From IMG/VR virus record IMGVR_UViG_2585427765_000017: a stretch of 36,151 nucleotides of DNA. One strand, 5' to 3'. Positions 5,788-35,726 of this stretch are shown here, in pieces. This stretch comes from a virus. Its lineage: Duplodnaviria > Heunggongvirae > Uroviricota > Caudoviricetes. Under the pieces are notes generated by a model. That model did no database searches, was not told the DNA's origin, and saw only the letters and a list, made by a program, of their open reading frames with translations. The position numbers were made by a program, and so were the translations under genes. Numbering within the stretch: position 1 is the first letter of the stretch; each line of letters opens with the position of its first letter.

Positions 5788-5816
5788 ACTGATTCCTCGC
5801 GGTGCTGCTTCGCTTA

Positions 5817-5945
5817 TCAGCCGTTAGATTTTGCCGAGCTGGAAAGCGCCTGTATAAACTCACTGAAGCTGAGAGCTTCTTCGCCTTTGGCAAGGCCTTC
5901 GAAGTATTCTTCGTAAGCCTTTTCCATGATTGTGTCGAAATCCAT
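5817..5945 (-). CDS. ydfB: YdfB-like small protein (42 aa; below track threshold, hand-translated)
   Basis: Minus-strand ORF translating to MDFDTIMEKAYEEYFEGLAKGEEALSFSEFIQALSSSAKSNG; sits between ydfA-like stop and ydfC-like start with 1-nt spacing to the ydfA stop. Confidence 0.45.
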   Translation of the reverse strand: MDFDTIMEKAYEEYFEGLAKGEEALSFSEFIQALSSSAKSNG

Positions 5946-5946
5946 A

Positions 5947-6102
5947 TCACTCACCTGAGTTTCTTTCCAGCCAGCGACGGGCACCATTTTCGGTTTTAAA
6001 CGTTTTGCTTTTGGTATACGTCATCGCGGTGAACGTACCGTCCTGGTTGGGGAACACGCCACATACCAGAGATTCGTTGTTGCCAAGATCGATAGTATCC
6101 AT
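5947..6102 (-). CDS. ydfA: YdfA-like protein (51 aa, internal Met of the 78-aa track ORF)
   Basis: MDTIDLGNNESLVCGVFPNQDGTFTAMTYTKSKTFKTENGARRWLERNSGE matches my recollection of Qin YdfA; GAGGT RBS upstream; first gene downstream of the leftward promoter. Confidence 0.7.
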   Translation of the reverse strand: MDTIDLGNNESLVCGVFPNQDGTFTAMTYTKSKTFKTENGARRWLERNSGE

Positions 6103-6283
6103 GTTGACCTCATTTCCCCTTAACGCCGGGGTAGCGGAACAAAAACCTGCTGCATAGTTATTAAAGTTGAACCCTGCCGTCATGTTCTTACGCCTCGGGC
6201 TGGCTACTTAACCCCTGACCACTGCCTGGTAACTCGAGGTATTGCCCTGTATTGTGTGGGACGGGATGGGTTGGTATGGGAAA

Positions 6284-6350
6284 ACTATAGGAAATGCCTA
6301 ATTACTTGTCAATAGGCTATGCCTAATAATTTGGGCGCAACCTAATAGGT
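6284..6350 (-). promoter_or_regulatory. Leftward early promoter/operator region (PL/OL-like)
   Basis: Minus strand carries TTGACA (about 6307-6312), 17-bp spacer, TATAGT (about 6284-6289). Overlaps the 17-bp operator ATTAGGCATAGCCTATT (inverted, 6311-6327) plus extra GCCTAAT/CCTAATAGG half-sites at about 6296-6302 and 6341-6349. Confidence 0.5.
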
Positions 6351-6420
6351 GATGGTTTGTGGAAGAGGTAGTAGGAGTTAACTAACGGGAACTAGGAATT
6401 TCCCGTCGGACCATATAAGT

Positions 6421-6897
6421 TTAAGTTCCTGTCTTGGTGATGTTCTGGCTTTTCCGTTTTGATTCTTGATTTTTCAGATAGTTAGCTACCTTCATTTCCA
6501 TTGCGGCAATGTAGGCGCGAACGTCATGATCAACCCAACTAGGCTCCGTAGCATTTCCAGATAAGATGAAAGCCACAATTGCTCTTTTTTCATCAGAGGC
6601 GGCTTGATAAAGGCTGTTTATGTCTAAAAGTTCACTTTTTGTATCTGAAGTGGATGGGGTTGGTATGGGGTATTCGTTAAGCCCCCAATGCTCTGGACCA
6701 ACCACATCAGAAAAGAAACGCCATAGTTCTGGAAGTTTGTCTTTACTTATCGAACCTTTCTTAATCCAGTCATGGATTGATGGTGGTTGGACTTTGAAAT
6801 GACGTGCGATTTCCGCCTTTGATTTGACGGCTCCTGATGCAATTTTTTTGTTAATGGCCTGCTCTATCGCTCGGCCTAAGTCTTTACCACTAAGCAT
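6421..6897 (-). CDS. Prophage CI-like repressor (HTH), no recognisable LexA/S24 autocleavage domain
   Basis: N-terminal HTH region (GKDLGRAIEQAINKKIASGAVKSKAEIARHFKVQPPSIHDWIKKG) resembles the phage CI-repressor HTH family; divergent from the cro-like gene; flanked by matching operator repeats. No Ala-Gly/Ser...Lys S24 signature seen in the 158-aa product. Confidence 0.75.
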   Translation of the reverse strand: MLSGKDLGRAIEQAINKKIASGAVKSKAEIARHFKVQPPSIHDWIKKGSISKDKLPELWRFFSDVVGPEHWGLNEYPIPTPSTSDTKSELLDINSLYQAASDEKRAIVAFILSGNATEPSWVDHDVRAYIAAMEMKVANYLKNQESKRKSQNITKTGT

Positions 6898-6944
6898 TGC
6901 TTAATAGTCTCCTATGCGCATCGCGTTAGGCAATCCCTACTCTC

Positions 6945-6997
6945 GATGTATTAGGCATAGCCTATTGACAATTTCATTAGGCTAAGCCTAATATTGT
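6945..6997 (+). promoter_or_regulatory. Rightward early promoter/operator region (PR/OR-like)
   Basis: TTGACA (about 6965-6970), 18-bp spacer, TAATAT (about 6989-6994). Operator ATTAGGCATAGCCTATT at 6950-6966 and near-palindrome ATTAGGCTAAGCCTAAT at 6977-6993 overlapping the -10. The 22-bp TTGTCAATAGGCTATGCCTAAT is repeated inverted at 6306-6327. Confidence 0.55.
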
Positions 6998-7021
6998 TGC
7001 GTGTTTTTTGGAGTTCATTCG

Positions 7022-7345
7022 ATGAAAAAAGATAACTATTCATTCAAACGAGCTTGTGCTGTTGTCGGTGGGCAATCAGCAATGGCTAGGCTTTTAGGTG
7101 TATCTCCTCCAAGCGTAAATCAATGGATCAAAGGTGTACGTCAGTTACCTGCTGAGAGATGTCCTGCGATTGAACGAGCAACAAAAGGTGGTGTCCTGTG
7201 TGAAGAACTTCGTCCTGATGTTGATTGGACATACTTACGACGCTCGTCATGTTATTCGCAGAATATGTCGATGAAGCAACCAAATGACGAAAACGATCAT
7301 ACCCGAAGCATCAAGAGGCAAATGATTCATGAAAATCAAACATGA
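7022..7345 (+). CDS. Cro/YdaS-like HTH regulator
   Basis: MKKDNYSFKRACAVVGGQSAMARLLGVSPPSVNQWIKGVRQLPAERCPAIE is a Cro/C1-type HTH resembling Rac YdaS. ATG at 7022 with GGAG RBS is preferred over the track GTG at 7001, which would lie at the predicted transcription start. Confidence 0.7.
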   Translation: MKKDNYSFKRACAVVGGQSAMARLLGVSPPSVNQWIKGVRQLPAERCPAIERATKGGVLCEELRPDVDWTYLRRSSCYSQNMSMKQPNDENDHTRSIKRQMIHENQT

Positions 7346-7754
7346 GCACATCCGCATGGCGATGAATGCCTGGGCATACCCTGATGGTGAGAAAGTTCCT
7401 GCAGCTGAAATAGCCCGGACTTATTTCGAACTGGGGATGACGTTCCCTGAACTGTATGACGACAGCCATCCGGAAGCCCTGGCTCGCAATACCCAGAAAA
7501 TTTTCCGCTGGGTAGAGAAAGACACCCCTGATGCAGTTGAAAAAATTCAGGCGTTGTTACCAGCGATCGAAAAGGCAATGCCACCTTTGCTGGTGGCCAG
7601 AATGCGCAGCCACAGTTCAGCTTATTTTCGGGAGCTGGTGGAGACGCGGGAGCGACTGGTGAGAGACGCTGATGATTTTGTCGCAGTGGCAATCGCCGGT
7701 TTCAATCAGATGAACCGTGGTGGCCCGGCAGGAAATGCTGTGGCAGTACATTGA
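7329..7754 (+). CDS. YdaT-like (CII-like) regulator
   Basis: MKIKHEHIRMAMNAWAYPDGEKVP... matches my recollection of the Rac YdaT N-terminus; immediately follows and overlaps the Cro/YdaS-like gene. Confidence 0.6.
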   Translation: MKIKHEHIRMAMNAWAYPDGEKVPAAEIARTYFELGMTFPELYDDSHPEALARNTQKIFRWVEKDTPDAVEKIQALLPAIEKAMPPLLVARMRSHSSAYFRELVETRERLVRDADDFVAVAIAGFNQMNRGGPAGNAVAVH

Positions 7755-10038: not shown

Positions 10039-10545
10039 ATGGAAATAACTAAAGAACGATTATTGGAAATAGCAAATCTTAGTGAAAGGGCATTAAGTGA
10101 TGGGAGGATTATTTCTCCTGATGCTTATGAATCAGTTACAAGTATAGAAATAATAACGATGGCCAGGATGCTTCTTGCCCGCTTCAAAAAAGAATATAAA
10201 AAACAGGTAGATAGCAATGCTAATATATATGATATTTTGGACTGTTGGGGAGCTTGGGCTGTAGCTGGAAATAGTTCTATCAACTGGCAGCAAGTGGCTG
10301 ATAAATATAAAGATGTTGTGCCTCATGGTAAAAAATTGCGTCGCCAGAGCAGCGATGATGAAGGGCGAGTGATTGATGAGTGGATATTGAGACTCAGACA
10401 ATATAAAATAGATGAATATGAGTTAATTGTTGCCCACTTTGTAATAGGCGTTTCTTTGAGAAAGATCGCAAAAAGAAAGAAATGTGCGGATGGGACTATT
10501 AGAAAAAAATACAAGCAGCGATGGGAGTATTGGAGGGAGTATTAA
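10039..10545 (+). CDS. Q-like antiterminator homologue (QuuD/PF06530-like), AT-rich, second Q-type gene in the window
   Basis: Motifs ILDCWGAWAVAGNSSINWQ, DDEGRVIDEWILRL, YELIVAHFVIGVSLRKIAKRKKCADGTIRK resemble (from memory) the ERWGAWA...DDD...YVVG... pattern of QuuD-type Q proteins. ATG at 10039 with GGAGA RBS; visibly AT-rich compared with flanks. Confidence 0.5.
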   Translation: MEITKERLLEIANLSERALSDGRIISPDAYESVTSIEIITMARMLLARFKKEYKKQVDSNANIYDILDCWGAWAVAGNSSINWQQVADKYKDVVPHGKKLRRQSSDDEGRVIDEWILRLRQYKIDEYELIVAHFVIGVSLRKIAKRKKCADGTIRKKYKQRWEYWREY

Positions 10546-10566
10546 TGCTCTAACTGTTAGAGCTAA
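10546..10566. terminator. Hairpin between convergent genes (possible bidirectional terminator)
   Basis: Perfect inverted repeat GCTCTAAC-tg-TTAGAGC sits between the stop of the Q-like gene and the stop of the minus-strand membrane-protein gene. Confidence 0.35.
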
Positions 10567-11783
10567 ATAAAAATCTTCGCAAGAAATATTCCTGCTGCAA
10601 TAGAACTTGGTAGCCAAGCCAAATACATAAATAACTTTATTGTATTATCACATTTGGTTTGGCTCTTTGATAGTTCATATAGAGCCTCATTAATGTCCTT
10701 CTTAAGGTCTTCTGGATAATTTTCATTGTTTTTTAGAAAAGGCATAAATGCTATATCTTTAGCATGGTAAATATGTTTTAATTGTTTATCCTGATTGAGT
10801 AATACCATATATAAAATAAGTGAGCTTAACAATACACCTAATAAAACGAGTAACATTTCAGATCTTGATGTTAGTTTTATAATCCCGAAGGATGCCAGTA
10901 AAGACACAGGGATTGATAATACTTTTGTCGTCAAATCAGTAATAAGTTTTGAGATTTTTTCAGCAAACTCTGCTTCAGACTTCGCAATTTCTTTTCGTGC
11001 CTTATGGAATGAAAAACCACTCATATACGTGGATAAATTATTTTCAAATAGCTTTACAAATTTATCCCAATGGCAAATTAGGTTTTCAAAATCATATTTG
11101 TTATCGAGAATAAACTCCACTATGGTATTCCTGAAAATACCTGTTTTTTCTGCTTGATGGGGGATTTGGGCGTTTTTTACATCTAAAAGACTCTTGATGA
11201 TAGCATCATCAATGTCATTTATATTGAGCATCTTAGGTGTAATGCACGTTTCTAAAATAATAGATGTTGATTTTGCGTCAGAATCTTTCACGAAAACTAA
11301 ACGATAATTTGAAGATTCCGATTTTGTATCGTGAAAGTGCGCAATCTCAGCCAGGGAAGAAATAATTGCACAAATTTTCTCGATTTTTATAATTTCGTCC
11401 GGTTTACTTGAATCAGACGGATGAAAATCCTCATCGATTATGTAATACTCTTTAGGAATTACACCTTTCTTGAGTGAGTTTATACAAAGGAACTCTTGAA
11501 TTGAGTTATAGAAACGTTCTGCTCCATTTTTAGGGGATATGTAAGTGTATGAGAATTTATCTCCAATTTTAATTGGGTGTGATTTTAAATCGTCTTCGTC
11601 AATGAACTCATTATTAATATCAACATCTTCAAAATAACCGTAGGCTTTATGTGAATTTACTAACAAGTTTACCAAACGTTGATTGTTATTATTTATTTCA
11701 ACAGTTGCAGAAAAAGAACGTCCGTCGAATTGGGGCTTCGATGATGCTCTATAAAAATCTACAACCGTTGATAAATTAGCCAT
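10563..11783 (-). CDS. Protein with about 280-aa soluble N-terminal region and three predicted C-terminal transmembrane helices; second gene of AT-rich operon
   Basis: Hydrophobic segments VLSIPVSLLASFGIIKL, MLLVLLGVLLSSLILYMVLL and IKLFMYLAWLPSSIAAGIFLAKIFI near the C-terminus. ATG (MANLSTVV) overlaps the upstream gene stop as ATGGCTAA; the track GTG start at 11795 is less likely. K/N/I/D-rich composition. Confidence 0.7.
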   Translation of the reverse strand: MANLSTVVDFYRASSKPQFDGRSFSATVEINNNNQRLVNLLVNSHKAYGYFEDVDINNEFIDEDDLKSHPIKIGDKFSYTYISPKNGAERFYNSIQEFLCINSLKKGVIPKEYYIIDEDFHPSDSSKPDEIIKIEKICAIISSLAEIAHFHDTKSESSNYRLVFVKDSDAKSTSIILETCITPKMLNINDIDDAIIKSLLDVKNAQIPHQAEKTGIFRNTIVEFILDNKYDFENLICHWDKFVKLFENNLSTYMSGFSFHKARKEIAKSEAEFAEKISKLITDLTTKVLSIPVSLLASFGIIKLTSRSEMLLVLLGVLLSSLILYMVLLNQDKQLKHIYHAKDIAFMPFLKNNENYPEDLKKDINEALYELSKSQTKCDNTIKLFMYLAWLPSSIAAGIFLAKIFI

Positions 11784-12918
11784 TTTCTTTTCCACTATCC
11801 CTTATTTTTAAATTTTCTTTTACCACAGCGCTTAGTTTAGCCTTAAATTCAGCTGGTAAGTTTGTAAATGATAATCTTCCAGTTGTTTCATCGTACCACA
11901 CATCATCATCAGCTGTCACTCCAAGGAGAGACTTGTCAAAATTAAATCCAATCTCATCAGTCTTAAAGGTGATGTTTTTAATGTCTTTCAACGCCCGTTT
12001 ACTGATAACAAATTCAGTTGGAATTCTCACATTTTCACTATTTAAAAAAAGAATTAATTCGTGAGTGTAAGATTCTTTGGTAGACTCATCTAAATTTGTC
12101 ATGTGACGTGCTGCAATTACTTCAATATCACTCAATCGGGCTGACAAATTTTTAGCTGCTTGTGTGTCTAAATATGCAATAACGTCATGTTTAAATCTAT
12201 TGGCACATGCTTTAAGTTCTGGTTTTTGGTTAAAAAATTGTTTTGCGACAGTTGGTAGTTTTTTTGTGGCTTTTGCTGCTGCAAGTGATTTGTCGCATCC
12301 TATTGCTGCAATAAAATATGCTGATGTGGATTGACCCACTCCTTTACTTACGAAACTTAGATAACTTAAGTCAATTTTTTCAGACTCATCAGCAGTTTTA
12401 TATTGTTGGTAGAGATTGAAATTTATTCTTGCTGCTTGGTGTATTTTGGATAGATCCAAATGGATCATTTCTTCAGGTTCGAGTTTGTTGCTGATAGTAA
12501 CACCATTTTTCTTTTTAATCATTGCAATTAAAAAGAATTTATTGTTATTTACAATATAGTCACAAAACACAATAAAACCACCAGATGACCAAGGTTCTTC
12601 TTTGGCTTTTTTTACAAGTTGCTTCATCACTTCAATAGAAAAAGGCACAAACTTTTCATTAATGTTATCCTCTGACTGAGAATACTCTTCAAATATTGAT
12701 GGCACAGGCCCTTGTTCTGTTTTTTCCTCTTTAAAAACGCCATAATGTGCAGAATTGCCTTTGGTTCCATATAAAGATGAAATGTCTTGAATAAGTTTTA
12801 TAACAATTGGATTGGTTTTATCGAGAGGAGTGGATCTAAGCTGATACGGCTTAGAAAAATCAAAATCCTTTTTTGCTTCTTTAATTAGTTCATGAACGAT
12901 AACTTGCTTAATTTCCAT
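11776..12918 (-). CDS. NdpA/YejK-like (NA37 nucleoid-associated protein family) homologue; first gene of AT-rich operon
   Basis: VIVHELIKEAK near the N-terminus, GGFIVFCDY and YLSFVSKGVGQSTSAYFIAAIG motifs parallel YejK IALHQLIK, GGFVLFCHY, YLTFLKGRVGRKVADFF as I recall them; AGGTGA RBS 8 nt upstream of ATG. Needs HMM confirmation. Confidence 0.65.
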   Translation of the reverse strand: MEIKQVIVHELIKEAKKDFDFSKPYQLRSTPLDKTNPIVIKLIQDISSLYGTKGNSAHYGVFKEEKTEQGPVPSIFEEYSQSEDNINEKFVPFSIEVMKQLVKKAKEEPWSSGGFIVFCDYIVNNNKFFLIAMIKKKNGVTISNKLEPEEMIHLDLSKIHQAARINFNLYQQYKTADESEKIDLSYLSFVSKGVGQSTSAYFIAAIGCDKSLAAAKATKKLPTVAKQFFNQKPELKACANRFKHDVIAYLDTQAAKNLSARLSDIEVIAARHMTNLDESTKESYTHELILFLNSENVRIPTEFVISKRALKDIKNITFKTDEIGFNFDKSLLGVTADDDVWYDETTGRLSFTNLPAEFKAKLSAVVKENLKIRDSGKENG

Positions 12919-13192
12919 ATTGAAAATATCACCTATGTTATTGTTAGATCGTTTGTGATTTTTTTACCATCACAACAACGACACAAAATCATTAATGCGT
13001 ACGCAAAAATTTTGAATAATGAGTTAATCAATGTCAATAGTTAAACACACTACCGCTGTAGAGTTGTTGTCATTAAATTGCGTCATAAGTAGAATTGCTG
13101 CGGGTGCTTGAGGCTATCTGTCTCAGGCATGAACACCAAAAGGCAGATAGATAAAAGCCCCACCCGACTATAAATCGAAGTGAGGCCCCTAT

Positions 13193-13405
13193 ATGCTCGT
13201 CACATATAGATTGCCTCTTACGGACCGAAAGGTCAAGGAGAAGCAGGCTATGAAGCAGCAAAAGGCGATGTTAATCGCCCTGATCGTCATCTGTTTAACC
13301 GTCATAGTGACGGCACTGGTAACGAGGAAAGACCTCTGCGAGGTACGAATCCGAACCGGCCAGACGGAGGTTGCTGTTTTCGTAGACTACGAATCTAGAG
13401 AGTAA
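13193..13405 (+). CDS. mok: Mok-like overlapping reading frame of the hok locus
   Basis: 70-aa frame that starts upstream of, and terminates with, the hok coding sequence, as in hok/mok/sok loci. Confidence 0.5.
   Translation: MLVTYRLPLTDRKVKEKQAMKQQKAMLIALIVICLTVIVTALVTRKDLCEVRIRTGQTEVAVFVDYESRE
13250..13405 (+). CDS. hok: Hok/Gef-family type I toxin (51 aa)
   Basis: MKQQKAMLIALIVICLTVIVTALVTRKDLCEVRIRTGQTEVAVFVDYESRE is a near-exact Hok-family toxin sequence (HokD/RelF-like from memory). Confidence 0.85.
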   Translation: MKQQKAMLIALIVICLTVIVTALVTRKDLCEVRIRTGQTEVAVFVDYESRE

Positions 13406-15278: not shown

Positions 15279-15829
15279 TCGTAAATATGATATATCCGGA
15301 AATTACAGGCAAAAGCGGCGAGCATTTACGTCTAAAAACGCTGGAAGCCGTCTGGATCCAGGGGAAATTACGGATGTGGGGGCGTTGGTCGTATATAGGT
15401 GGTGGCAAACCAGGAAATATGTTCAATCAGTTGCTGGCATCCAAAAAACTGACAAAAACCGCGGTCAATGAAGCCCTGCGTAGAATCAGGGAGTCAGGGA
15501 TTGATAAACCAGAGCTGGAAGCATTCTTGCGAGAGATGATCGCTGGCAGACAGAAGAGCTGGTTGTCTCACTGTACTGATGCAGAGGCGTTACGCATTGA
15601 TGGGGTGATAAGTAAAGCGCTTGCACGTTATCCTGGATTGATTGATATCCTGCGGCAAAGGTACGAAGGGCGGGGGATGAGTAAACGCAAAATGGCTGAA
15701 TTGTTGAATGAGGTTCACCCTGAGTGGTGCTATGCAACATGCCGCAATCGTATAGATATGTGGCTGAGAATAGCTGAGTTTATTCTGTATCCACTGATGC
15801 GAGATGCATTTTCTTTTACTGACGCTTAG
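15275..15829 (+). CDS. Late antiterminator Q candidate (canonical position)
   Basis: About 180-aa ORF directly after rusA and directly upstream of a short non-coding stretch ending in a strong intrinsic terminator (tR'-like), the standard Q-PR'-tR' arrangement. Sequence family not confirmed. Confidence 0.5.
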   Translation: MIVNMIYPEITGKSGEHLRLKTLEAVWIQGKLRMWGRWSYIGGGKPGNMFNQLLASKKLTKTAVNEALRRIRESGIDKPELEAFLREMIAGRQKSWLSHCTDAEALRIDGVISKALARYPGLIDILRQRYEGRGMSKRKMAELLNEVHPEWCYATCRNRIDMWLRIAEFILYPLMRDAFSFTDA

Positions 15830-16489: not shown

Positions 16490-17539
16490 ATGATTAATAC
16501 TGTAAAAATATCCAGTTGTGAGTTAATCAACGCTGATTGCCTGGAGTTTATCCAGACCTTACCGGAAAACTCTGTCGATCTGATAGTCACAGACCCGCCA
16601 TATTTTAAAGTGAAGCCCGAGGGCTGGGATAACCAGTGGGAGGGCGACGATGATTACCTGAAATGGCTGGACCAGTGTCTGGCGCAGTTCTGGCGGGTAC
16701 TGAAGCCTGCCGGAAGTCTTTACCTGTTCTGTGGTCATCGCCTGGCATCTGACACCGAAATCATGATGCGTGAGCGCTTTAATGTGCTGAACCACATTAT
16801 CTGGGCGAAGCCGTCCGGACGCTGGAACGGGTGCAATAAGGAAAGTCTGCGGGCGTATTTTCCGGCAACAGAGCGCATTCTGTTTGCAGAACATTATCAG
16901 GGACCGTATCGCCCGAAAGATGATGGCTATGTGGAGCAGGGGCGCGAGCTAAAACAGCACGTCATGGCCCCGCTGATTTCTTACTTTCGTGATGCGCGTA
17001 AATCACTGGGAATAACGTCAAAACAGATAGCGGAAGCCACCGGAAAGAAAAACATGGCTTCGCACTGGTTTGGTGCCAGTCAGTGGCAGTTACCGAACGA
17101 GGGTGATTACAATAAATTGCAGGCGTTGTTTGCGCGTGTTGCGGCAGAAAAACATCAGCGCGGGGAACTGGAAAAGCCACACCACCAGCTGGTCAGCACA
17201 TACAGTGAGCTGAACCGGCAGTATACGGAACTGCTGAGTGAATATAAAAATTTGCGGCGGTATTTCGGTGTGACGGCGCAGGTTCCGTACACCGATGTCT
17301 GGACGCATAAACCGGTGCAGTACTATCCAGGGAAACATCCGTGCGAAAAACCGGCAGAAATGCTGCAGCAGATAATCAACGCGAGCAGTCGTCCGGGAGA
17401 CCTGGTTGCAGATTTTTTTATGGGTTCAGGTTCAACGGTAAAAGCGGCGATGGCACTGGGGCGTTGTGCGATTGGTGTTGAGCTGGAGACCGGACGTTTT
17501 GAACAGACAGTCAGGGAAGTTCAGGATTTAATCGTTTGA
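16490..17539 (+). CDS. DNA methyltransferase (N6-adenine/N4-cytosine class, DPPY motif), apparently orphan
   Basis: Motif IV DPPY near the N-terminus (LIVTDPPYF) and motif I FxGxG near the C-terminus (DFFMGSGST). No restriction endonuclease gene identifiable adjacent. Confidence 0.85.
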   Translation: MINTVKISSCELINADCLEFIQTLPENSVDLIVTDPPYFKVKPEGWDNQWEGDDDYLKWLDQCLAQFWRVLKPAGSLYLFCGHRLASDTEIMMRERFNVLNHIIWAKPSGRWNGCNKESLRAYFPATERILFAEHYQGPYRPKDDGYVEQGRELKQHVMAPLISYFRDARKSLGITSKQIAEATGKKNMASHWFGASQWQLPNEGDYNKLQALFARVAAEKHQRGELEKPHHQLVSTYSELNRQYTELLSEYKNLRRYFGVTAQVPYTDVWTHKPVQYYPGKHPCEKPAEMLQQIINASSRPGDLVADFFMGSGSTVKAAMALGRCAIGVELETGRFEQTVREVQDLIV

Positions 17540-28460: not shown

Positions 28461-28631
28461 ATGTTTGTCAAACCTGTTAAAGGGCGGTCAGTTCCTGATC
28501 CTGCCCGCGGCGACCTTTTGCCCGCCGAAGGGCGAAATGTTGATGAGAACAACTACTGGCTGCGCCGTGAAGCAGCGGGTGATATCCGGCGCGTGAATAA
28601 AAAGGTGAATACCGATGACGATAAGCTTTAA
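28461..28631 (+). CDS. Small DUF2635-like protein preceding the sheath (56 aa; below track threshold)
   Basis: Hand translation MFVKPVKGRSVPDPARGDLLPAEGRNVDENNYWLRREAAGDIRRVNKKVNTDDDKL; overlaps sheath start. Confidence 0.4.
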   Translation: MFVKPVKGRSVPDPARGDLLPAEGRNVDENNYWLRREAAGDIRRVNKKVNTDDDKL

Positions 28632-30111
28632 CACCATTCCGTCGAATACGCTGGTTCCGTTGTTTTATGCGGAAATGGATAACCAGGCGGCGAATACTGC
28701 ACAGGACAGCGGAGCATCGCTGCTGATTGGTCATGCCAATAACGGTGCAGAGATTGTTGCCAACAGTCTGGTGCTGATGCCGTCGGCAGACTATGCACGC
28801 CAGATTTGTGGTGTGGGAAGTCAGCTGGCGCGTATGGTCGAGGCTTATCGCCAGACCGACCCGTTTGGTGAGCTGTATGTGATTGCCGTTCCTGAATCCA
28901 CGGGCGCGGCGGCAACGGTTACGCTGACGGTGACCGGGGCGGCAACCGAAACCGGCACGGTGAATGTGTATGTGGGACGTACCCGCGTGCAGGCACCGGT
29001 GACCAATGGCGATAACGTCACGATGATTGCCAGCAGTATCCAGGATGCCATCAATGCCGTTCCGACTCTGCCGTTTACAGCTTCATCTTCGGCTGGTGTT
29101 GTCACGCTGACCGCGCGTCATAAGGGGCTTTGCGGGAATGAAATTCCTGTCAGCCTCAATTACTACGGCTTCGGTGGGGGCGAAGTGCTGCCAGCGGGCG
29201 TACAGATTGCCGTGGCGACGGGGACCGCCGGAACGGGCGCTCCGGTTCTCACCGGCGCGGTGGCTGCAATGGCGGATGAGCCGTTTGATTATATCGGTCT
29301 GCCGTTCAACGACACGGCCTCCGTTAACACGCTGGTGACCGAGATGAACGATACCAGCGGTCGCTGGAGCTATGCGCGTCAGCTGTATGGTCATGTGTAT
29401 ACGGCAAAGACCGGCACACTGTCAGAACTGGTGAACGCAGGTGACCAGTTTAACCAGCAGCACATCACCCTGGCGGGGTACGAAAAAGAAACCCAGACGC
29501 CTGCCGACGAGCTGGCAGCCAGCCGTACCGCCCGCGCGGCAGTGTTTATCCGCAACGATCCGGCACGTCCCACGCAGACCGGTGAGCTGGTGGGTATGCT
29601 GCCTGCGCCGAAGGGGAAACGGTTCACGATGACCGAGCAGCAGACCCTGCTGTCTCATGGCGTGGCAACGGCGTATGTCGAAAGCGGGGTGCTGCGCATT
29701 CAGCGTGATGTCACCACGTACAGGAAAAACGCTTACGGGGTTGCGGATAACAGCTACCTCGACAGCGAGACGCTGCATACCAGCGCGTATGTACTGCGCA
29801 AACTGAAATCCGTCATTACCAGTAAGTACGGGCGTCACAAGCTTGCCAGTGACGGTACCCGCTTTGGTCCCGGTCAGGCGATTGTCACCCCGGCGGTGAT
29901 CAAAGGGGAACTGCTGGCAACCTACCGTCAGCTCGAGCGTGCGGGGATCGTGGAAAACTACGAACTGTTTAAGCAGTACCTGGTTGTGGAGCGTGATGCC
30001 AGCGATCCGAACCGCCTGAACACGCTGTTCCCGCCTGACTATGTTAACCAGTTGCGTGTCTTTGCCGTGGTTAACCAGTTCCGTCTTCAGTATTCAGAGG
30101 AGTCTGCATAA
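28615..30111 (+). CDS. Contractile tail sheath protein (Mu gpL-like)
   Basis: 498 aa, followed immediately by the tube gene and the frameshifted chaperone pair; N-terminal TISFNTIPSNTLVPLFYAE is typical of Mu-like sheath proteins. Confidence 0.8.
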   Translation: MTISFNTIPSNTLVPLFYAEMDNQAANTAQDSGASLLIGHANNGAEIVANSLVLMPSADYARQICGVGSQLARMVEAYRQTDPFGELYVIAVPESTGAAATVTLTVTGAATETGTVNVYVGRTRVQAPVTNGDNVTMIASSIQDAINAVPTLPFTASSSAGVVTLTARHKGLCGNEIPVSLNYYGFGGGEVLPAGVQIAVATGTAGTGAPVLTGAVAAMADEPFDYIGLPFNDTASVNTLVTEMNDTSGRWSYARQLYGHVYTAKTGTLSELVNAGDQFNQQHITLAGYEKETQTPADELAASRTARAAVFIRNDPARPTQTGELVGMLPAPKGKRFTMTEQQTLLSHGVATAYVESGVLRIQRDVTTYRKNAYGVADNSYLDSETLHTSAYVLRKLKSVITSKYGRHKLASDGTRFGPGQAIVTPAVIKGELLATYRQLERAGIVENYELFKQYLVVERDASDPNRLNTLFPPDYVNQLRVFAVVNQFRLQYSEESA

Positions 30112-30467
30112 TGGCCCGTATCGGGGGAACCTGTTATTTCAAAATTGACGGTCAGCAGCTATCGCTGACCGGCGGCATTGAGGTGCCCATGAACAGGACG
30201 GTCAATGATGACATCATCGGCCTGGACGGTTCAGTGGACCGCAAGGAAACTCACCGTGCGCCTTATGTCAAAGGGACCTTCAAGGTGCCGAAGAATTTTC
30301 CGGTGAGCAAAATCACCTCGTCTGATGAGATGACCATCACTGCCGAGTTGGCGAACGGTCAGGTCTATGTACTGTCGTCTGCCTGGCTGCACGGCGAAGC
30401 GAACCATAATGCCGAAGAAGGCACGGTTGATCTTGAGTTCCACGGTGAAGAAGGGGATTACCAGTAA
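30111..30467 (+). CDS. Tail tube protein (Mu gpM-like)
   Basis: 118-aa ORF directly after the sheath with overlapping stop/start (TAATG). Confidence 0.75.
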   Translation: MARIGGTCYFKIDGQQLSLTGGIEVPMNRTVNDDIIGLDGSVDRKETHRAPYVKGTFKVPKNFPVSKITSSDEMTITAELANGQVYVLSSAWLHGEANHNAEEGTVDLEFHGEEGDYQ

Positions 30468-30736
30468 TGAAAGAGCTTGAGTTAAAGAAACCGATTACTG
30501 CTCATGGCGAGACACTCTCCGTACTGGAGTTTGATGAGCCCACCGGGAAGGATGTCCGCGAGCTGGGGTATCCCTACCAGATGAATCAGGATGAGTCCGT
30601 CAGACTTCTGGCGCATGTGGTGTCGAAATACATTGTGCGGCTGGCGAAAGTGCCGCAAAGCTCTGTCGACCAGATGTCTCCGGCAGACCTGAATGCAGCG
30701 GCGTGGCTTGTGGCTGGTTTTTTCCTCCAGGCCTGA
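30467..30736 (+). CDS. Tail assembly chaperone (short form)
   Basis: 89-aa ORF directly upstream of the tape measure gene, carrying a slippery heptamer near its 3' end. Confidence 0.7.
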   Translation: MKELELKKPITAHGETLSVLEFDEPTGKDVRELGYPYQMNQDESVRLLAHVVSKYIVRLAKVPQSSVDQMSPADLNAAAWLVAGFFLQA

Positions 30737-30885
30737 CGGCTGAATACCTCACTGATCGCTTCTTTGACTGCGCCAGCTACTGGCGCATTAATCCCTTCGA
30801 ATTGCTGAATATGTCGATCAGTGAAATTCCCTTGCTGGTCAGTCAGGCAAACAGGATAGAGCAGGAGAAACGCACACATGGCTGA
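30703..30885 (+). CDS. -1 frame extension of the tail assembly chaperone (programmed frameshift product)
   Basis: Slippery T TTT TTC at about 30718-30724 in the zero frame of the chaperone; the -1 frame stays open to 30885, overlapping the tape measure start. Confidence 0.55.
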   Translation: MACGWFFPPGLTAEYLTDRFFDCASYWRINPFELLNMSISEIPLLVSQANRIEQEKRTHG

Positions 30886-32713
30886 ATTTGAGCTTAAGGC
30901 GTTGATCACCGGTGTCGACAGGCTTTCTCCCGCGCTGTCGAAAATGCAAAAGAAAATCCGGGGATTTAAACGCCAGGCGGAAGAAGCGTCACAGGGTGGG
31001 CTGGCGCTTGGTGGCGGACTGGCAGCGGGTCTGACGCTTTCCCTGAAATCTTATGCCGATCAGGAAAACGCCGCCACCGGGCTGAAAGTCGCCATGATGG
31101 ATGCGAACGGCGAGATTGGAAAGCGCTTTCAGGACATCAATAAACTGGCTATTGGCCTGGGTAACCAGCTACCCGGTACAACGGCTGATTTCCAGAACAT
31201 GATGCAGATGCTGGTGCGTCAGGGGATCCCGGCAGAAAACATTCTTGGCGGTGTGGGTAAAGCGACAGCTTATCTTGCGGTACAACTGAAAAAAACACCG
31301 GAAGCGGCTGCCGAGTTTGCCGCAAAGATGCAGGATGCTACCGGAACGGCGTCAGAAGACATGATGGGGCTGTTCGACACTATCCAGAAGGCGTTTTATC
31401 TGGGCGTTGACGATACCAACATGTTGTCCTTCTTCACTAAAACCAGCTCTGTTCTGAAGATGGTGAACAAGGACGGTCTTCAGGCTGCACAGAGCCTTGC
31501 CCCCATCAGCGTCATGATGGATCAGATGGGGATGAACGGGGAGTCGGCAGGTAACGCCCTGCGAAAAGTTATCCAGTCCGGATTAAGCGTTAAGAAAATC
31601 AGGGACGTCAATAAAGTCATGGCCCGCCAGAAACTCGGAGTGCAGCTCGATTTTACTGACGGCAAAGGGAGTTTTGGCGGTCTTGATAACATGTTCAGGC
31701 AACTGGCAAAGCTGCGAAAACTGACCGACGTTAAGCGAACAGGTGTACTTAAGGCAATATTTGGTGATGATGCCGAAACCCTTCAGGTGGTCAATGCCCT
31801 GATCGATAAAGGAAAGGATGGTTACGATCAGATCCAGCAGAAGATGAATAAACAGGCCAGCCTGAATAAACGTGTTCAGGCACAGCTTGGTACGCTGTCC
31901 AACCTGTGGGAGGCAATGACAGGGACCGCAACTAACGGCCTTGCGGCTATTGGCGGCGCATTTTCTGGTGACGCCAAAAATATCACGCAATGGCTGGGGG
32001 AGTTGGGGGAAAAATTCACGAAGTTTGCGGATCAAAATCCCCGGGTTATTCGCGGCGTCGTCGGGCTTGCTGCCGGTCTTGCGATTCTGAAACTGGGATT
32101 GATGGGCGTGGGCAGTGCCATCAGTATCGTCAGCAGGATCATGTCGATGACGCCGATTGGCATGATTGCGACGGCGATTGCTCTGGCTGCGGGATTAATT
32201 ATCACTAACTGGGATGTTGTCGGACCTTATTTTAAGAAGCTCTGGGAAACCATTGGTCCTTATTTTGAGGCTGGCTGGGAACTTCTGAAGAAAGTTTTTG
32301 CCTGGTCGCCGCTGGGAATGGTGATCAATAACTGGGGACCGGTTGTTAAGTGGTTTCAGGATATGTGGGACAAGCTGAAGCCCATTATTGAGTGGTTTAC
32401 CGACAGTTCCGGTGACACGGTCGATGCCATTAACTCTGCGCAGTGGGGCGTGGGTGCTTATGATGCTTATGGGACGGGAATACCGGCGCGGGGATACACA
32501 CCTTATCCGGCGGTAGATCCGGCTCAGTCAAACAACGCCTCCGGTGCCACAGGCCCGAATCCCTTCATGATTAACAAAGCTTCTGCGCCAAAAGTTGATG
32601 GTGAGATCAAGGTCTCTTTTGTGAACTCGCCTCCGGGTATGCGGGTTATGGAAACGCGATCCAGCGGTTTTGATGTCAGCCATGATGTTGGTTATACGCG
32701 CTTTTGCAGGTAA
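30878..32713 (+). CDS. Tail tape measure protein
   Basis: 611 aa, alpha-helical/Gly-Ala-rich with a C-terminal hydrophobic/aromatic region; follows the frameshifted chaperone pair. Confidence 0.8.
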   Translation: MAEFELKALITGVDRLSPALSKMQKKIRGFKRQAEEASQGGLALGGGLAAGLTLSLKSYADQENAATGLKVAMMDANGEIGKRFQDINKLAIGLGNQLPGTTADFQNMMQMLVRQGIPAENILGGVGKATAYLAVQLKKTPEAAAEFAAKMQDATGTASEDMMGLFDTIQKAFYLGVDDTNMLSFFTKTSSVLKMVNKDGLQAAQSLAPISVMMDQMGMNGESAGNALRKVIQSGLSVKKIRDVNKVMARQKLGVQLDFTDGKGSFGGLDNMFRQLAKLRKLTDVKRTGVLKAIFGDDAETLQVVNALIDKGKDGYDQIQQKMNKQASLNKRVQAQLGTLSNLWEAMTGTATNGLAAIGGAFSGDAKNITQWLGELGEKFTKFADQNPRVIRGVVGLAAGLAILKLGLMGVGSAISIVSRIMSMTPIGMIATAIALAAGLIITNWDVVGPYFKKLWETIGPYFEAGWELLKKVFAWSPLGMVINNWGPVVKWFQDMWDKLKPIIEWFTDSSGDTVDAINSAQWGVGAYDAYGTGIPARGYTPYPAVDPAQSNNASGATGPNPFMINKASAPKVDGEIKVSFVNSPPGMRVMETRSSGFDVSHDVGYTRFCR

Positions 32714-32736
32714 TGAAAAATTAATCTGTTAATGAG

Positions 32737-32759
32737 TCCCACTCCGGTGGGATTTTTTA
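32737..32759 (+). terminator. Hairpin plus T-run between tape measure and the next tail gene
   Basis: TCCCAC-tccg-GTGGGA followed by TTTTTT, about 15 nt upstream of the ATG at 32774. Confidence 0.35.
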
Positions 32760-32773
32760 TGTACGGAGTTTAT

Positions 32774-34102
32774 ATGACGTGGAAAGACAGGCTTCAGGAT
32801 GCGTCATTTCGCGGCGTACCGTTTAAGGTTGAAGAAGAAAGTGCGGGAACCGGTCGCCGTGTGGAAACGCACGAATACCCGAACCGCGACAAACCCTATA
32901 CCGAAGATCTGGGAAAAGTCACTTTCCGCCCGTCCATCACGGCTTATGTGGTGGGAGATGACTGCTTTGACCAGCGCGATCGCCTGATTGACGCGCTGAA
33001 TAAACCCGGTCCCGGCACGCTTGTCCATCCGACATACGGTGAGCTGAAAGTCTGTGTTGACGGGGAGGTTCGGGTCAGCACATCGAAGAGTGAAGGGCGT
33101 ATTGTCCGCTTTGACCTGAAGTTTGTCGAAGCGGGAGAACTCTCTTACCCCACATCAGGTGCGGCGACGGCGCAGACGCTGATGTCATCCTGTTCTGCAC
33201 TGGATGACTGCATCAGTGACAGTTTCAGTGGTTTCAGTGTCGATGGCGTGGCAGATTTTGTACAGAACGACGTCGTCGGTAATGCCAGCACAATGCTTGG
33301 GTATGTTTCTGATGCGATGAAAGTGGTGGATTCTGCCGTATCGGATGCTGCCAGGCTGTTGCAGGGGGATATCTCGGTACTTCTGCCGCCACCATCGTCA
33401 GGCAAAAATTTCGTTGAGCAGGTGCAGAAAATGTGGCGTACCGGGAAACGCCTTTATGGTAACGCCAGCGACCTTGTCACCATGATCAAAACGCTTTCCG
33501 GTGTCAGCCTCGGCAGCGATCTGCAACCGCGCGGCATCTGGAAAACGGACAGTAAAACCACCGCCACGGCGACGCAGCAGCGTAACGTGGTTGCCAGCAC
33601 CCTTCGTACGACCGCAATCAGCGAAGCGGCGTATGCCGTCACCCGATTGCCTGCGCCAACAACTTCCGCGGTGATGCAGAATGCCACAGTGGGGCAGGCA
33701 ACAACACCTGCGCAGAGCACTGGCTGGCCTTCCGTCACGCATCCGGCACTGAACAATGCACCGGCGGTGAAAAACACGGTTGACCTGCCAACGTGGGAAG
33801 AACTGACCGACATTCGCGACACACTGAATACGGCAATTGATAAGGAGTTGTCCCGTACAACCAGTGATGCGTTGTTTCTGGCGCTGCGCCGGGTGAAAGC
33901 AGATCTGAATGCGGATATCAACACGCGCCTTGAACAGTCTGCACGGATCATTCAGCGCACACCGGATGAGGTTTTACCCGCGCTGGTGCTGGCGGCGACC
34001 TGGTTTGATAACGCGGCGCGTGACGAGGACATTATCCGGCGTAATGCCATTACGCATCCCGGCTTTGTGCCGGTGATCCCTCTGAAGGTGCCAGTGCAAT
34101 GA
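32774..34102 (+). CDS. Mu gpN-like DNA circularisation protein (tail/baseplate hub-associated)
   Basis: MTWKDRLQDASFRGVPFKVEEESAGTGRRVETHEYPNRDKPYTEDLG matches the typical N-terminus of the DNA-circulation family; ATG at 32774 with GGAG RBS preferred over the track start 32732. Confidence 0.7.
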   Translation: MTWKDRLQDASFRGVPFKVEEESAGTGRRVETHEYPNRDKPYTEDLGKVTFRPSITAYVVGDDCFDQRDRLIDALNKPGPGTLVHPTYGELKVCVDGEVRVSTSKSEGRIVRFDLKFVEAGELSYPTSGAATAQTLMSSCSALDDCISDSFSGFSVDGVADFVQNDVVGNASTMLGYVSDAMKVVDSAVSDAARLLQGDISVLLPPPSSGKNFVEQVQKMWRTGKRLYGNASDLVTMIKTLSGVSLGSDLQPRGIWKTDSKTTATATQQRNVVASTLRTTAISEAAYAVTRLPAPTTSAVMQNATVGQATTPAQSTGWPSVTHPALNNAPAVKNTVDLPTWEELTDIRDTLNTAIDKELSRTTSDALFLALRRVKADLNADINTRLEQSARIIQRTPDEVLPALVLAATWFDNAARDEDIIRRNAITHPGFVPVIPLKVPVQ

Positions 34103-35178: not shown

Positions 35179-35726
35179 TGAGGACGATTGAAACCATACA
35201 GCGACAACTCCTCGGCCTGATTGGGCGGGCCGTGGTGAAAAGCATCAGTGCCGCCACGAAATGTCAGACCGTGGATGTGTCCCTGATTGCAGGTGAACCC
35301 AAAGCCGGGGTTGAACATCTTGAACCCTACGGTTTTACCGCAAGCGCAAACAGCGGTGCGGAAGCGGTGGTGTTGTTTCCGGATGGCGACCGTTCTCATG
35401 CGGTGGTTGTTACGGTGTCGGATCGGCGCTACCGCCTGAAAGGGCTGAAGACGGGTGAGGTGGCTGTCTATGACGATCAGGGGCAGTCCGTGACGCTGAC
35501 CCGGGAGGGGATCGTGGTGGACGGTGCAGGGAAAACGATCACGTTTCGCAATGCACCTAAAGCACGTTTTGAAATGGACCTGGAAGTGACAGGACAGGTG
35601 AAAGACCTGTGCGACTCCAGCGGCACCACCATGTCAGCGATGAGGCTTGCCTATAACGGGCATCGTCACAGAGAGAACGGTCAGGGCAGTAACACCGACA
35701 AACCTGATAAAGCGATGGAGGCATGA
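35178..35726 (+). CDS. Baseplate assembly protein V / spike (Mu gp45-like)
   Basis: 182 aa; GEPKAGVEHLEPYGFTASANSGAEAVVLFPDGDRSHAVVV resembles the OB-fold N-terminus of gpV-type spike proteins. Confidence 0.65.
   Translation: MRTIETIQRQLLGLIGRAVVKSISAATKCQTVDVSLIAGEPKAGVEHLEPYGFTASANSGAEAVVLFPDGDRSHAVVVTVSDRRYRLKGLKTGEVAVYDDQGQSVTLTREGIVVDGAGKTITFRNAPKARFEMDLEVTGQVKDLCDSSGTTMSAMRLAYNGHRHRENGQGSNTDKPDKAMEA

Follow-up and report, generated by a model that had tools for sequence, protein, structure and literature searches.

Putative operators and promoters on both sides of the racR repressor gene in a Rac-type prophage of Escherichia coli

Introduction

In a 36,151-nucleotide stretch of prophage DNA (hereafter, the window), a gene for a small repressor is bounded by two inverted copies of the same short sequence. 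What are these copies, which protein acts on them, and how could such a repressor be removed upon induction? We propose that the region very probably serves a lambdoid prophage, apparently complete and with immunity of the Rac type, as its immunity (lysis-lysogeny) switch. The RacR/YdaS/YdaT switch of Rac-type E. coli prophages is real, well studied and already known: more than half of the complete E. coli genomes carry this prophage type, its biochemistry has been studied since 2017, and it represents a textbook-style immunity switch. The left operator pair and the PL promoter, conserved across genera, are absent from the discussion in recent RacR papers. We suggest that models of how the RacR octamer functions, and of how xis/int are controlled, should take them into account.

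The repressor and its gene neighborhood

The 158-aa repressor is RacR, the repressor of the Rac prophage. It matches the NCBIfam equivalog model NF049929 over residues 1–145 (246.3 bits, cutoff 200) and is 91% identical to RacR of E. coli K-12, which is also 158 aa long. RefSeq labels the identical protein WP_000948452.1 as RacR, and DNA that is 100% identical and annotated as racR is found in many E. coli genomes; a match is present in 3047 of the 5426 complete genomes of this species. The gene has the divergent partners of the RacR family, a Cro-like ydaS and a CII-like ydaT (Table 1). The YdaT-box exactly matches the box footprinted in K-12, which is the site of a PRE-like reverse promoter (PMC11879457). 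According to the RefSeq annotation, the host prophage occupies roughly 43 kb between potC and potB of E. coli, is apparently complete, and includes replication, Q, lysis, head and tail genes. The record ON470595 is a predicted prophage with host flanks.

The Pfam names of the partner families, YdaS_toxin and YdaT_toxin, point to another function, a toxin-antitoxin-like addiction module in which the repeats would merely silence the "toxins" YdaS and YdaT. Indeed, racR is essential in K-12, and expression of ydaS/ydaT is lethal (PMC5700373, PMC5700377). However, the module here is part of a prophage with the gene content listed above, and the isolated phage KpF5 has the same module. YdaS and YdaT are analogues of Cro and CII (Jobling letter; PMC11879457), consistent with the CII-like PHROG assignment. 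In addition, the left operators described below would serve a separate operon ending in xis-int, for which an addiction module would have no need. An addiction module is thus very improbable, and the locus is treated below as an immunity switch.

Table 1. Predicted features of the racR region (window coordinates)
Feature	Coordinates	Strand	Description
DUF1391, ydaF/ydaG-like	5947..6102	-	first gene of the leftward operon; Pfam DUF1391 9e-29; RefSeq coordinates
PL-like promoter	6284..6312	-	TTGACA (6312-6307), 17-bp spacer, TATAGT (6289-6284); 11/12 matches
OL1, predicted operator	6286..6302	.	TATAGGAAATGCCTAAT; 1 core mismatch; overlaps PL -10
Left repeat arm	6306..6328	.	OL2 and PL -35
OL2, predicted operator	6311..6327	.	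AATAGGCTATGCCTAAT; perfect core; overlaps PL -35
OL3, possible, weak	6330..6346	.	one good half-site ACCTAAT; 2 core mismatches; uncertain
racR	6421..6897	-	158-aa prophage repressor
OR4 (published "O3")	6889..6905	.	ACTAAGCATTGCTTAAT; over racR start codon; autoregulatory site
OR3	6925..6941	.	GTTAGGCAATCCCTACT; within racR promoter region
Right repeat arm	6949..6971	.	OR2 and PR -35
OR2	6950..6966	.	ATTAGGCATAGCCTATT; overlaps PR -35; sequence same as OL2
PR-like promoter (PydaST)	6965..6994	+	TTGACA, 18-bp spacer, TAATAT; 10/12 matches
OR1	6976..6992	.	ATTAGGCTAAGCCTAAT; half-sites perfectly palindromic; overlaps PR -10
ydaS-like (Cro analogue, HTH)	7022..7345	+	Pfam YdaS_toxin 4e-30, P22_Cro 1e-8; phrog_35 transcriptional repressor; RefSeq start
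YdaT-box	7322..7339	.	ATGATT-N6-AATCAA; across ydaT ATG; read from sequence
ydaT-like (CII analogue)	7329..7754	+	Pfam YdaT_toxin 7e-10; phrog_163 CII-like activator 1e-44

The inverted repeat flanking racR

The original prediction described a 22-bp sequence repeated in inverted orientation on both sides of the repressor gene. We confirmed both copies of TTGTCAATAGGCTATGCCTAAT as exact 22-mers, at 6306–6327 on the plus strand and at 6950–6971 on the minus strand, and extended the exact inverted repeat to 23 bp (6306–6328/6949–6971, 100% complementary). No further match to TTGTCAATAGGCTATGCCTAAT with up to three mismatches was found in the whole 36-kb window. None of 100 shuffled windows gave any match, none being expected by chance.

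The repeat is long and perfect because OL2 and OR2 share both the operator sequence and an identical overlapping consensus -35 box. The length of the exact repeat depends on the lineage (23 bp here, 21 bp in E. ruysiae, 14 bp in K-12, and 8–16 bp elsewhere), while the operator layout is still kept. In K-12 the perfect repeat comprises just 14 bp because OR2 differs there from OL2 by one spacer base; K-12 OR2 deviates from the present OR2 in the spacer only.

A single gene bounded by perfect 23-bp inverted repeats might also suggest an invertible or mobile 0.66-kb racR segment, with the repeats as its ends (a DNA-inversion switch or a MITE/IS remnant). The probability of this is negligible, since the 17-bp operator and the overlapping -35 box explain the whole repeat, and it is the operator layout rather than the exactness of the repeat that is conserved among lineages. 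Moreover, neither an invertase nor a transposase adjoins the repeats in the RefSeq annotation, and racR and ydaS keep one relative orientation in all loci inspected. With no recombinase beside the repeats and one orientation only in these loci, membership in the class of invertible switches was rejected. The 23-bp repeat is not a recombination site.

Operators and promoters of the immunity region

The operator core TAGGC-N3-GCCTA with at most one mismatch occurs five times in the 36 kb, compared with 0.64 sites expected (0 of 100 shuffles reach five), and all five sites fall in two clusters on either side of the repressor gene. When up to two core mismatches are allowed, the clusters gain two extra sites, 6332–6344 and 6891–6903, the latter over the racR ATG. 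The bare heptamer ATTAGGC is not enriched in the window (five occurrences vs 3.7 expected); all five lie inside the two clusters. A scan of positions 5900–7400 for sigma-70-like promoters yielded two sites only, the PL-like and the PR-like promoters.

The right cluster corresponds to a well characterized regulatory region. In K-12, the DNase I footprints of RacR, the half-site ATTAGGC, the operators and the PydaS start site have been published, RacR represses PydaS and its own gene, and the PydaS region is protected at the lowest RacR concentration (PMC9638921). All four OR sites in Table 1 match footprinted K-12 sites. The K-12 counterpart of OR3 lies inside the RacR-protected region, and the site over the racR start codon has been described for K-12 as "O3" (PMC9638921); a counterpart of OR4 is found at -6 in nearly all related loci. 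The PR-like promoter has exactly the hexamers and spacing of K-12 PydaS, TTGACA-18-TAATAT, a promoter mapped by experiment (PMC11879457, PMC9638921).

The PL-like promoter points leftward into DUF1391-ydfB-ydfC...dicB...exonuclease-xis-int (RefSeq gene order). RacR depletion in K-12 turns on both rightward and leftward genes as well as excision: the leftward genes ydaG...xisR/intR are derepressed, with leftward genes up 40–70-fold or more, and a derepression of about 100-fold was reported for xisR/intR in a study that also described RacR octamer formation (PMC11014345). The half-site of the possible OL3, ACCTAAT, is retained in K-12; its conservation in other genera is not clear.

The predicted elements of each repeat copy, a TTGACA box and a 17-bp near-palindromic operator with ATTAGGC half-sites, are present on both sides. 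The further half-sites proposed over the -10 elements belong to the operators OL1 and OR1, and the proposed divergent PL- and PR-like promoters with a common operator type are supported as a lambda-like switch. On the right, the support comes from the match to K-12, where the RacR footprint (DNase I) and the PydaS transcription start have been mapped (PMC9638921); on the left, it comes from the conservation of the operator/-35/-10 layout across genera and by the leftward derepression in K-12 on RacR depletion. RacR almost certainly occupies OL1 and OL2 in this prophage, given that OL2 is identical to OR2.

We also considered a put/nut-like RNA element in the PL leader. At gathering thresholds, Rfam models matched only sok and three tRNAs in the whole window, and a permissive scan of 5800–7100 gave nothing. 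Neither the switch nor the PL leader contains a known RNA element. Folding z-scores were +1.26 for the leader (6103–6277, minus strand) and +0.15 for its conserved block, and the idea was dropped since folding gave no structural signal.

Conservation of the left operators

The OL-type operator pair, 25 bp apart and 60–135 bp past the stop codon, was found in seven lineages of Enterobacterales and in Achromobacter, in diverged flanks. The second operator, over the -10 box and 25 bp from OL2, is present in E. coli, E. ruysiae, Mixta, Morganella, Proteus, Erwinia and Achromobacter. In 18 of the 32 loci, among them the isolated Klebsiella phage KpF5 and loci with S24-type repressors, a composite of operator and TTGACA, TAGGCNNNGCCTATTGACA, follows the repressor gene and in every case is directed away from it. 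The N-terminal domain and the operator hardly vary within the family, which leaves too little difference to read covariation of the operator with the recognition helix. The OL–OR spacing among relatives is 591–641 bp, and helical phase is not conserved across genera.

A PL/OL equivalent has been published for the sister prophage CP-933P (PMC8630535). We found no description of OL for RacR in the literature covered; pre-2000 papers on sbcA/kil of Rac may contain one.

Domain architecture of RacR and the induction signal

RacR was predicted to have no autocleavage domain of the S24/LexA type, and this was borne out by Pfam, structure modeling and Foldseek. Pfam Peptidase_S24 (PF00717) had no match in RacR even at E<=1, and the sequence contains neither an AG or CG dipeptide nor a GDSM-type serine motif. 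The AlphaFold2 model (mean pLDDT 82) is all-alpha with no beta-strands and suggests a five-helix HTH N-terminal domain (about residues 1–73), a disordered linker and a three-helix C-terminal domain. A Foldseek search of the PDB with this model returned only generic HTH proteins (XRE/Cro/CI; best E = 0.09) and no S24 structure; by sequence, nothing in the PDB was significant. The absence of the S24 domain is unambiguous on alignment, because relatives that share the N-terminal domain do carry it. Two of them, P0101 and P0102, have SAGNG, GDSM and VKRL in a part of the alignment that RacR fills with an unrelated helical segment. Of the traits of lambda CI/LexA-type repressors, RacR thus has the HTH N-terminal domain and operator clusters on both sides of its gene, while the S24 domain and the cleavage motifs are lacking. 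Therefore RecA-stimulated self-cleavage cannot inactivate RacR. The C-terminal domain alone had 10 matches among 1.8 billion representatives, apparently mostly RacR proteins or short fragments, and is thus an orphan that offers no functional clue.

For a repressor that is small and non-cleavable, inactivation by a small LexA-controlled antirepressor, as in Gifsy-1/-3, 186 (Tum), N15 (AntC) and SPC32H (Ant), is a candidate, and the original prediction favored it. Lemire et al. (2011) listed RacR and DicA among the small repressors that may be under antirepressor control, and noted that antirepressors may act in trans from other prophages (PMC3121763). The RacR HTH also weakly resembles the SPC32H repressor in Foldseek (E 0.17, not significant). 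Nothing found here supports this route: RacR shares the non-cleavable repressor with the antirepressor-controlled class, but the antirepressor gene and the LexA box of that class were not found. No antirepressor, KilA, Bro or DinI-type gene is annotated by RefSeq anywhere in the 43-kb prophage, and there is no anti-repressor PHROG among the 16 early proteins. The box CTGT-N8-ACAG is absent from the window, and the LexA consensus 20-mer has no match with at most three mismatches. A looser scan of the whole prophage found a sole LexA-like box (16498–16517, 16/20); it falls within the ORF of a methyltransferase, and no promoter was called in its vicinity. Excision of K-12 Rac and of O157 Sp10 was reported not to be inducible by mitomycin C (PMC4632033), nor is the PaaR2 analogue responsive to it (PMC8630535), and a tblastn search of a phage collection with RacR gave no Gifsy match. 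A LexA-controlled antirepressor is thus unlikely, although one encoded in trans by another prophage, or a novel unannotated one, is conceivable.

Proposed switch mechanism

We propose that RacR dimers would bind 17-bp operators (A/T)TTAGGC-N3-GCCTAA(T/A) in the two clusters flanking racR. At OR1 and OR2, bound RacR would cover the -10 and -35 boxes of PR, the promoter presumed to drive ydaS (Cro-like), ydaT (CII-like) and the replication genes. Two more sites, OR3 and OR4, overlie the racR promoters and start codon and would provide autoregulation. The analogy of YdaS to Cro is imperfect, because K-12 YdaS did not repress racR (PMC9638921). On the left, OL would consist of the strong sites OL1 and OL2, over the -10 and -35 boxes of PL, and possibly of a third, weak one. 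PL is predicted to drive the leftward early operon with DUF1391, ydfB/C, dicB, the RecE-like exonuclease, xis and int. Derepression would most likely follow a fall in RacR level or occupancy, or an accumulation of YdaS in a bistable switch, rather than the SOS pathway.

By analogy with lambda CI, we infer that RacR octamers may link OL to OR over the racR gene, a distance of roughly 640 bp. Against this speak the OL–OR spacings of relatives, which keep no common helical phase, and the K-12 work, whose authors ascribe the RacR octamer to the four OR sites alone (PMC11014345). We speculate instead on a linked pair of ideas, to which we give somewhat less than an even chance: that RacR has a full lambda-style OL with octamer looping, and that it is an S24-less branch of a broad repressor family giving SOS-blind immunity. 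In the first, the octamer would be the looping complex that joins OL1/OL2 to OR1/OR2, which would revise the model of four dimers on four OR sites. In the second, a single DNA-binding domain and a single operator code would have been retained throughout the family. RacR prophages, the cryptic Rac among them, would then protect against homoimmune S24-type phages through an immunity blind to SOS, and a signal other than SOS would induce the RacR prophages themselves. Neither reading was found in the literature covered.

Comparison with known systems

The closest system is the K-12 Rac prophage (racR-ydaS-ydaT; b1356–b1358). It has the same repressor family, half-site ATTAGGC, PydaS hexamers with 18-bp spacing, four OR sites (one over the racR ATG), YdaT-box, and OL2/OL1/PL sequence downstream of racR. 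In contrast to the prophage described here, roughly 43 kb long, complete-looking and integrated at potB/potC, K-12 Rac is defective, a remnant of 23 kb located at ttcA. The leftward genes are dicB and ydfB/C here and kilR and sieB in K-12 Rac, and the present prophage, unlike K-12 Rac, has a Mu-like contractile tail.

CP-933P of O157:H7 (PaaR2-YdaS-YdaT) likewise has a small, non-cleavable, octamerising repressor and divergent YdaS/YdaT. Alongside PR/PRM it has a PL promoter (PL933P) with -35/-10 boxes identical to those of PR and with OL1–3, and it shows bistable switching (PMC8630535). However, its operators are 18-bp palindromes of the GTTTAGTAA type, and its repressor is co-transcribed with the ParE2/PaaA2 toxin-antitoxin pair. 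Set beside PaaR2, the C-terminal domain of RacR has no detectable similarity to other proteins.

The Gifsy-1/-2/-3 repressors (GfoR/GtgR/GfhR) are also lambdoid-prophage repressors of about 136–150 aa without a cleavage motif, and RacR has been named within this loose group (PMC3121763). In contrast to Gifsy, the prophage described here has no detected LexA-controlled dinI-antirepressor operon or LexA box, and RacR has no tblastn match to Gifsy phages.

The layout of the region follows lambda CI/Cro/CII. The repressor gene lies between OL/PL and OR/PR, and 17-bp pseudo-palindromic operators cover the -35 and -10 boxes; the repressor is autoregulated, octamerising and has a leaderless mRNA; Cro- and CII-like genes are rightward, and recombination genes, xis and int leftward. 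In contrast to lambda, RacR has a short helical C-terminal domain in place of the S24 autocleavage domain, OR comprises four sites, OL and OR are separated by only some 640 bp without rexAB, and the leftward operon has no recognisable N gene. Rac is also not SOS-inducible in K-12 (PMC4632033).

The S24-type CI relatives include P0101/P0102 (Pectobacterium-like genomes) and the Achromobacter, Herbaspirillum and Aeromonas loci L014–L030. Their N-terminal 73 residues are 50–86% identical to those of RacR, with a nearly invariant recognition-helix region, and they share TAGGC-N3-GCCTA operators at -66/-41/-6 and an OL pair with TTGACA. They differ in having Pfam Peptidase_S24 with Ala-Gly, Ser and Lys motifs, where RacR has its orphan three-helix domain, and often one or two extra genes between the repressor gene and OL. 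One DNA-binding domain and operator code, with or without the S24 domain, thus constitutes a natural experiment on how a swap of the C-terminal domain affects the signal for prophage induction.

Identity of the repressor and its prophage

The 158-aa ORF at the center of the region is identified as RacR by a score of 246 bits against the NCBIfam equivalog NF049929 (cutoff 200) and by 91% identity to the K-12 protein. The segment 6200–7100 occurs as 100% identical DNA, annotated as racR, in several RefSeq genomes, and a match is present in 3047 of 5426 complete E. coli genomes. The ydaS and ydaT genes lie to the right, with a YdaT box unchanged from the one footprinted in K-12, while the first gene to the left encodes a DUF1391 protein.

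A prophage that sits between potC and potB in strain E203449 matches the window at all but 15 of its 36,151 positions. The gene order of that prophage is int, xis, a RecE-like exonuclease, dicB, ydfB/C, racR, ydaS, ydaT and replication genes, followed by two Q-like genes, hok/sok, lysis genes, terminase, head genes and a Mu-like contractile tail. Unlike the K-12 remnant, it looks like a complete element of the Rac immunity type.

The lambdoid early region is joined to a Mu-like tail module (28615–36151, continuing into locus L003) with genes for sheath, tube, DNA circularization protein and baseplate V/J/gp46/gp47; several pseudogene fragments occupy the tail-fibre end of the prophage. Two different late antiterminator-type genes (10039–10545 and 15287–15829) encode a Q-like protein (phrog_79) and a DUF1133 protein, taken to be putatively Q-like; the late-control region may thus be mosaic or duplicated. 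Between the first Q-like gene and the hok/sok type I toxin-antitoxin locus (13102–13405), an opposite-strand two-gene cassette (10563–12918, minus strand) encodes a roughly 406-aa hypothetical protein and a 'nucleoid-associated protein' of 380 aa. The cassette has the look of a moron, or possibly of defence cargo.

Features of the racR region and the hok/sok locus in the window
Feature	Position	Strand	Remark
Left arm, 22-mer TTGTCAATAGGCTATGCCTAAT	6306–6327		exact 23-bp repeat, 6306–6328
Right arm, reverse complement	6950–6971		exact 23-bp repeat, 6949–6971
racR ORF	6421–6897	−	between repeat arms
PL	6312 to 6284	−	TTGACA-17-TATAGT; sigma-70-like promoter scan
PR	6965–6994	+	TTGACA-18-TAATAT; sigma-70-like promoter scan
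Operator cores, TAGGC-N3-GCCTA	6288, 6313, 6927, 6952, 6978		≤1 mismatch
Weaker operators	6332; 6891		two mismatches; latter overlaps racR ATG
YdaS/Cro-like gene	7022–7345		right of racR
YdaT/CII-like gene	7329–7754		right of racR
YdaT box	7322–7339		ATGATT-N6-AATCAA
sok RNA	13102–13252		Rfam RF01794, 109 bits
Hok/Gef gene	13250–13405		overlapped by sok

Operators and promoters flanking racR

The original prediction of a 22-bp sequence inverted on both sides of the repressor gene was confirmed, and the exact repeat is even one base pair longer. The 22-mer has no further match at up to three mismatches in the window, and none was found in 100 shuffles. The interpretation of the region as a switch with divergent promoters and shared operators also proved right. 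Only two sigma-70-like promoters, PL and PR, were called within 5900–7400, both with a TTGACA −35 hexamer that overlaps the end of one repeat arm. The 36-kb window holds five sites with the operator core, where 0.64 would be expected, and all five flank racR. The layout is mirror-symmetric, with operators OL2 and OR2 over the −35 elements and OL1 and OR1 over the −10 elements; the right side has two extra operators, OR3 toward and OR4 over the repressor start. OL2 and OR2 are identical base for base, so a protein that binds OR2 must also bind OL2.

Conservation of the left operators

For comparison, one genome per species was scanned with an alignment of the RacR family, which yielded 27 loci. 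Two operators 25 bp apart were found 60–135 bp past the stop codon in E. coli, E. ruysiae, Mixta, Morganella, Proteus, Erwinia and an unclassified MAG, and Achromobacter has the same pair downstream of an S24-type repressor gene. The conserved order is ATTAGGCnnnGCCTATTGACA, 6–7 nt, and ATTAGGCnnn(n)CCTAaTAT, that is, an operator over the −35 followed by an operator over the −10, in DNA that is otherwise unalignable between genera. The composite TAGGCNNNGCCTATTGACA lies downstream of the repressor gene, directed away from it, in 18 of 32 loci, including the isolated Klebsiella phage KpF5 and S24-type loci with one or two genes between repressor and OL, like rexAB in lambda.

The perfect repeat is 23 bp long here, 21 bp in E. 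ruysiae, 14 bp in K-12 and 8–16 bp elsewhere. On sequence comparison, the long perfect repeat is lineage-specific and the operator/promoter layout is the conserved feature. An invertible segment bounded by the repeats is excluded, as the repeat is composed of an operator and a −35 element, no recombinase adjoins it and the orientation of the segment is invariant across the loci inspected. [quoted passage not shown] Given this precedent, the cross-genus layout and the identity of OL2 and OR2, we conclude that the left copy represents the putative OL/PL of the Rac switch. The RacR octamer may plausibly bridge OL and OR. The Pfam family names imply a toxin-antitoxin reading of racR-ydaS-ydaT, but this is at odds with a prophage that is apparently intact and has a second operon under RacR control.

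Between the OL pair and the repressor gene, KpF5 (L031, 7115–9030) has a gene for a DUF450 protein, and the S24-type locus of protein P0102 (L033, 4001–5520) has two small ORFs. This slot, the rexAB position in lambda, is likely a site for lysogen-expressed cargo.

The PL leader contains a block of about 57 nt, GGGCAATACYTCGAGTTACCAGGCAGTGGTMAGGGGTTAAGTAGCCAGCCCGAGGCG (within 6185–6250, minus strand), that is almost invariant among the window prophage, K-12 Rac, E. ruysiae and 683R6; the neighbouring leader varies. Rfam gave no match to the block and its folding showed no signal (z = 0.15); the block may be a nut/put-like or protein-binding site. A mechanical 78-aa ORF (6183–5947, minus strand) fuses a short upstream frame to the DUF1391 gene. 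Since the same frame stops after 18 codons in K-12, the RefSeq start at 6102, which makes the gene shorter, is probably the true one, with the upstream part belonging to the leader.

Domain architecture of RacR and its relatives

The absence of an autocleavage domain, also predicted originally, was borne out on alignment: Peptidase_S24 has no Pfam match in RacR even at E ≤ 1. The AlphaFold2 model (pLDDT 82) is all-helical, with five helices at residues 4–71, a disordered linker at about 75–92 and three helices at 93–152. A Foldseek search against the PDB retrieved only XRE/Cro/CI HTH domains (best E = 0.09). Residues 1–73 are nearly invariant in the family and are joined to several different C-terminal domains. 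For the C-terminal domain of RacR itself, only 10 relatives could be detected in 1.8 billion representatives. The S24 domain is present in the Pectobacterium-type proteins P0101 and P0102, which show the Ala-Gly, Ser and Lys motifs, in P0114, and in nine of ten longer homologues from Beta- and Gammaproteobacteria (E-values 1e-12 to 1e-24), and the same operators appear to be used at loci of these relatives. As far as can be judged from sequence, RacR is thus the branch that lacks S24 in what otherwise appears to be a LexA-like family.

At position −6 relative to the ATG in the compared loci L008–L030, the autoregulatory half-site GCTTA(G/A) is embedded within codons 1–3 (ATG CTT AGY), so that the DNA site, and not the protein alone, probably constrains the invariant Met-Leu-Ser/Asn N-terminus. 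Eight separate stretches of the 594-aa protein P0124 show roughly 30% identity to the RacR C-terminal domain, which may point to a repeat protein or to a compositional artefact.

Induction

The suggestion that RacR is controlled by a cis-encoded, LexA-controlled antirepressor is unsupported. No antirepressor gene was found in the annotation of the entire prophage or among 16 early proteins scanned against PHROGs, and no CTGT-N8-ACAG box was detected. The sole LexA-like site in the prophage, the 20-mer TACTGTAAAAATATCCAGTT (16498–16517), agrees with the consensus at 16 of 20 positions and carries the CTGT...CCAG pattern of the uvrB box. It falls within the opening codons of a DNA methyltransferase gene (16490–17539, plus strand), and no sigma-70 promoter was called nearby. 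Excision of Rac and Sp10 is reported not to be induced by mitomycin C and to respond to RpoS and H-NS instead (PMC4632033), and the analogous CP-933P repressor PaaR2 is not mitomycin-responsive and shows bistable switching (PMC8630535). In K-12, excision is triggered by ydaS overexpression or RacR shortage. The antirepressor idea is not new, as Lemire et al. listed RacR among small non-cleavable repressors possibly targeted by antirepressors (PMC3121763); an antirepressor acting in trans from another prophage is possible.

Comparison with the known Rac system

The system is already known. DNase I footprinting in K-12 established the RacR half-site ATTAGGC and racR-ydaS intergenic operators with inverted repeats (T/A)TAGGC-N3-GCCTA(T/A), one over the racR ATG (PMC9638921), and primer extension mapped PydaS as TTGACA, 18 bp, TAATAT (PMC9638921; PMC11879457). 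RacR is an octamer in solution, with an N-terminal HTH domain and a C-terminal domain "entirely different" from that of lambda CI; when the RacR level is lowered, xisR/intR expression goes up about 100-fold and excision follows (PMC11014345). In RNA-seq after RacR depletion, the leftward genes ydaG, ydaF, kilR, ydaE, racC, recET, xisR and intR rise. Jobling (2018) argued that racR-ydaS-ydaT is equivalent to cI-cro-cII. The right half of our finding and the domain statement were thus already published. Binding sites 3' of racR were not described in the RacR literature searched; older work on sbcA/kil of Rac may already have OL. Our additions are modest: explicit evidence for a conserved OL/PL in RacR-type switches, and a DNA-binding module and operator code common to RacR and S24-bearing repressors.
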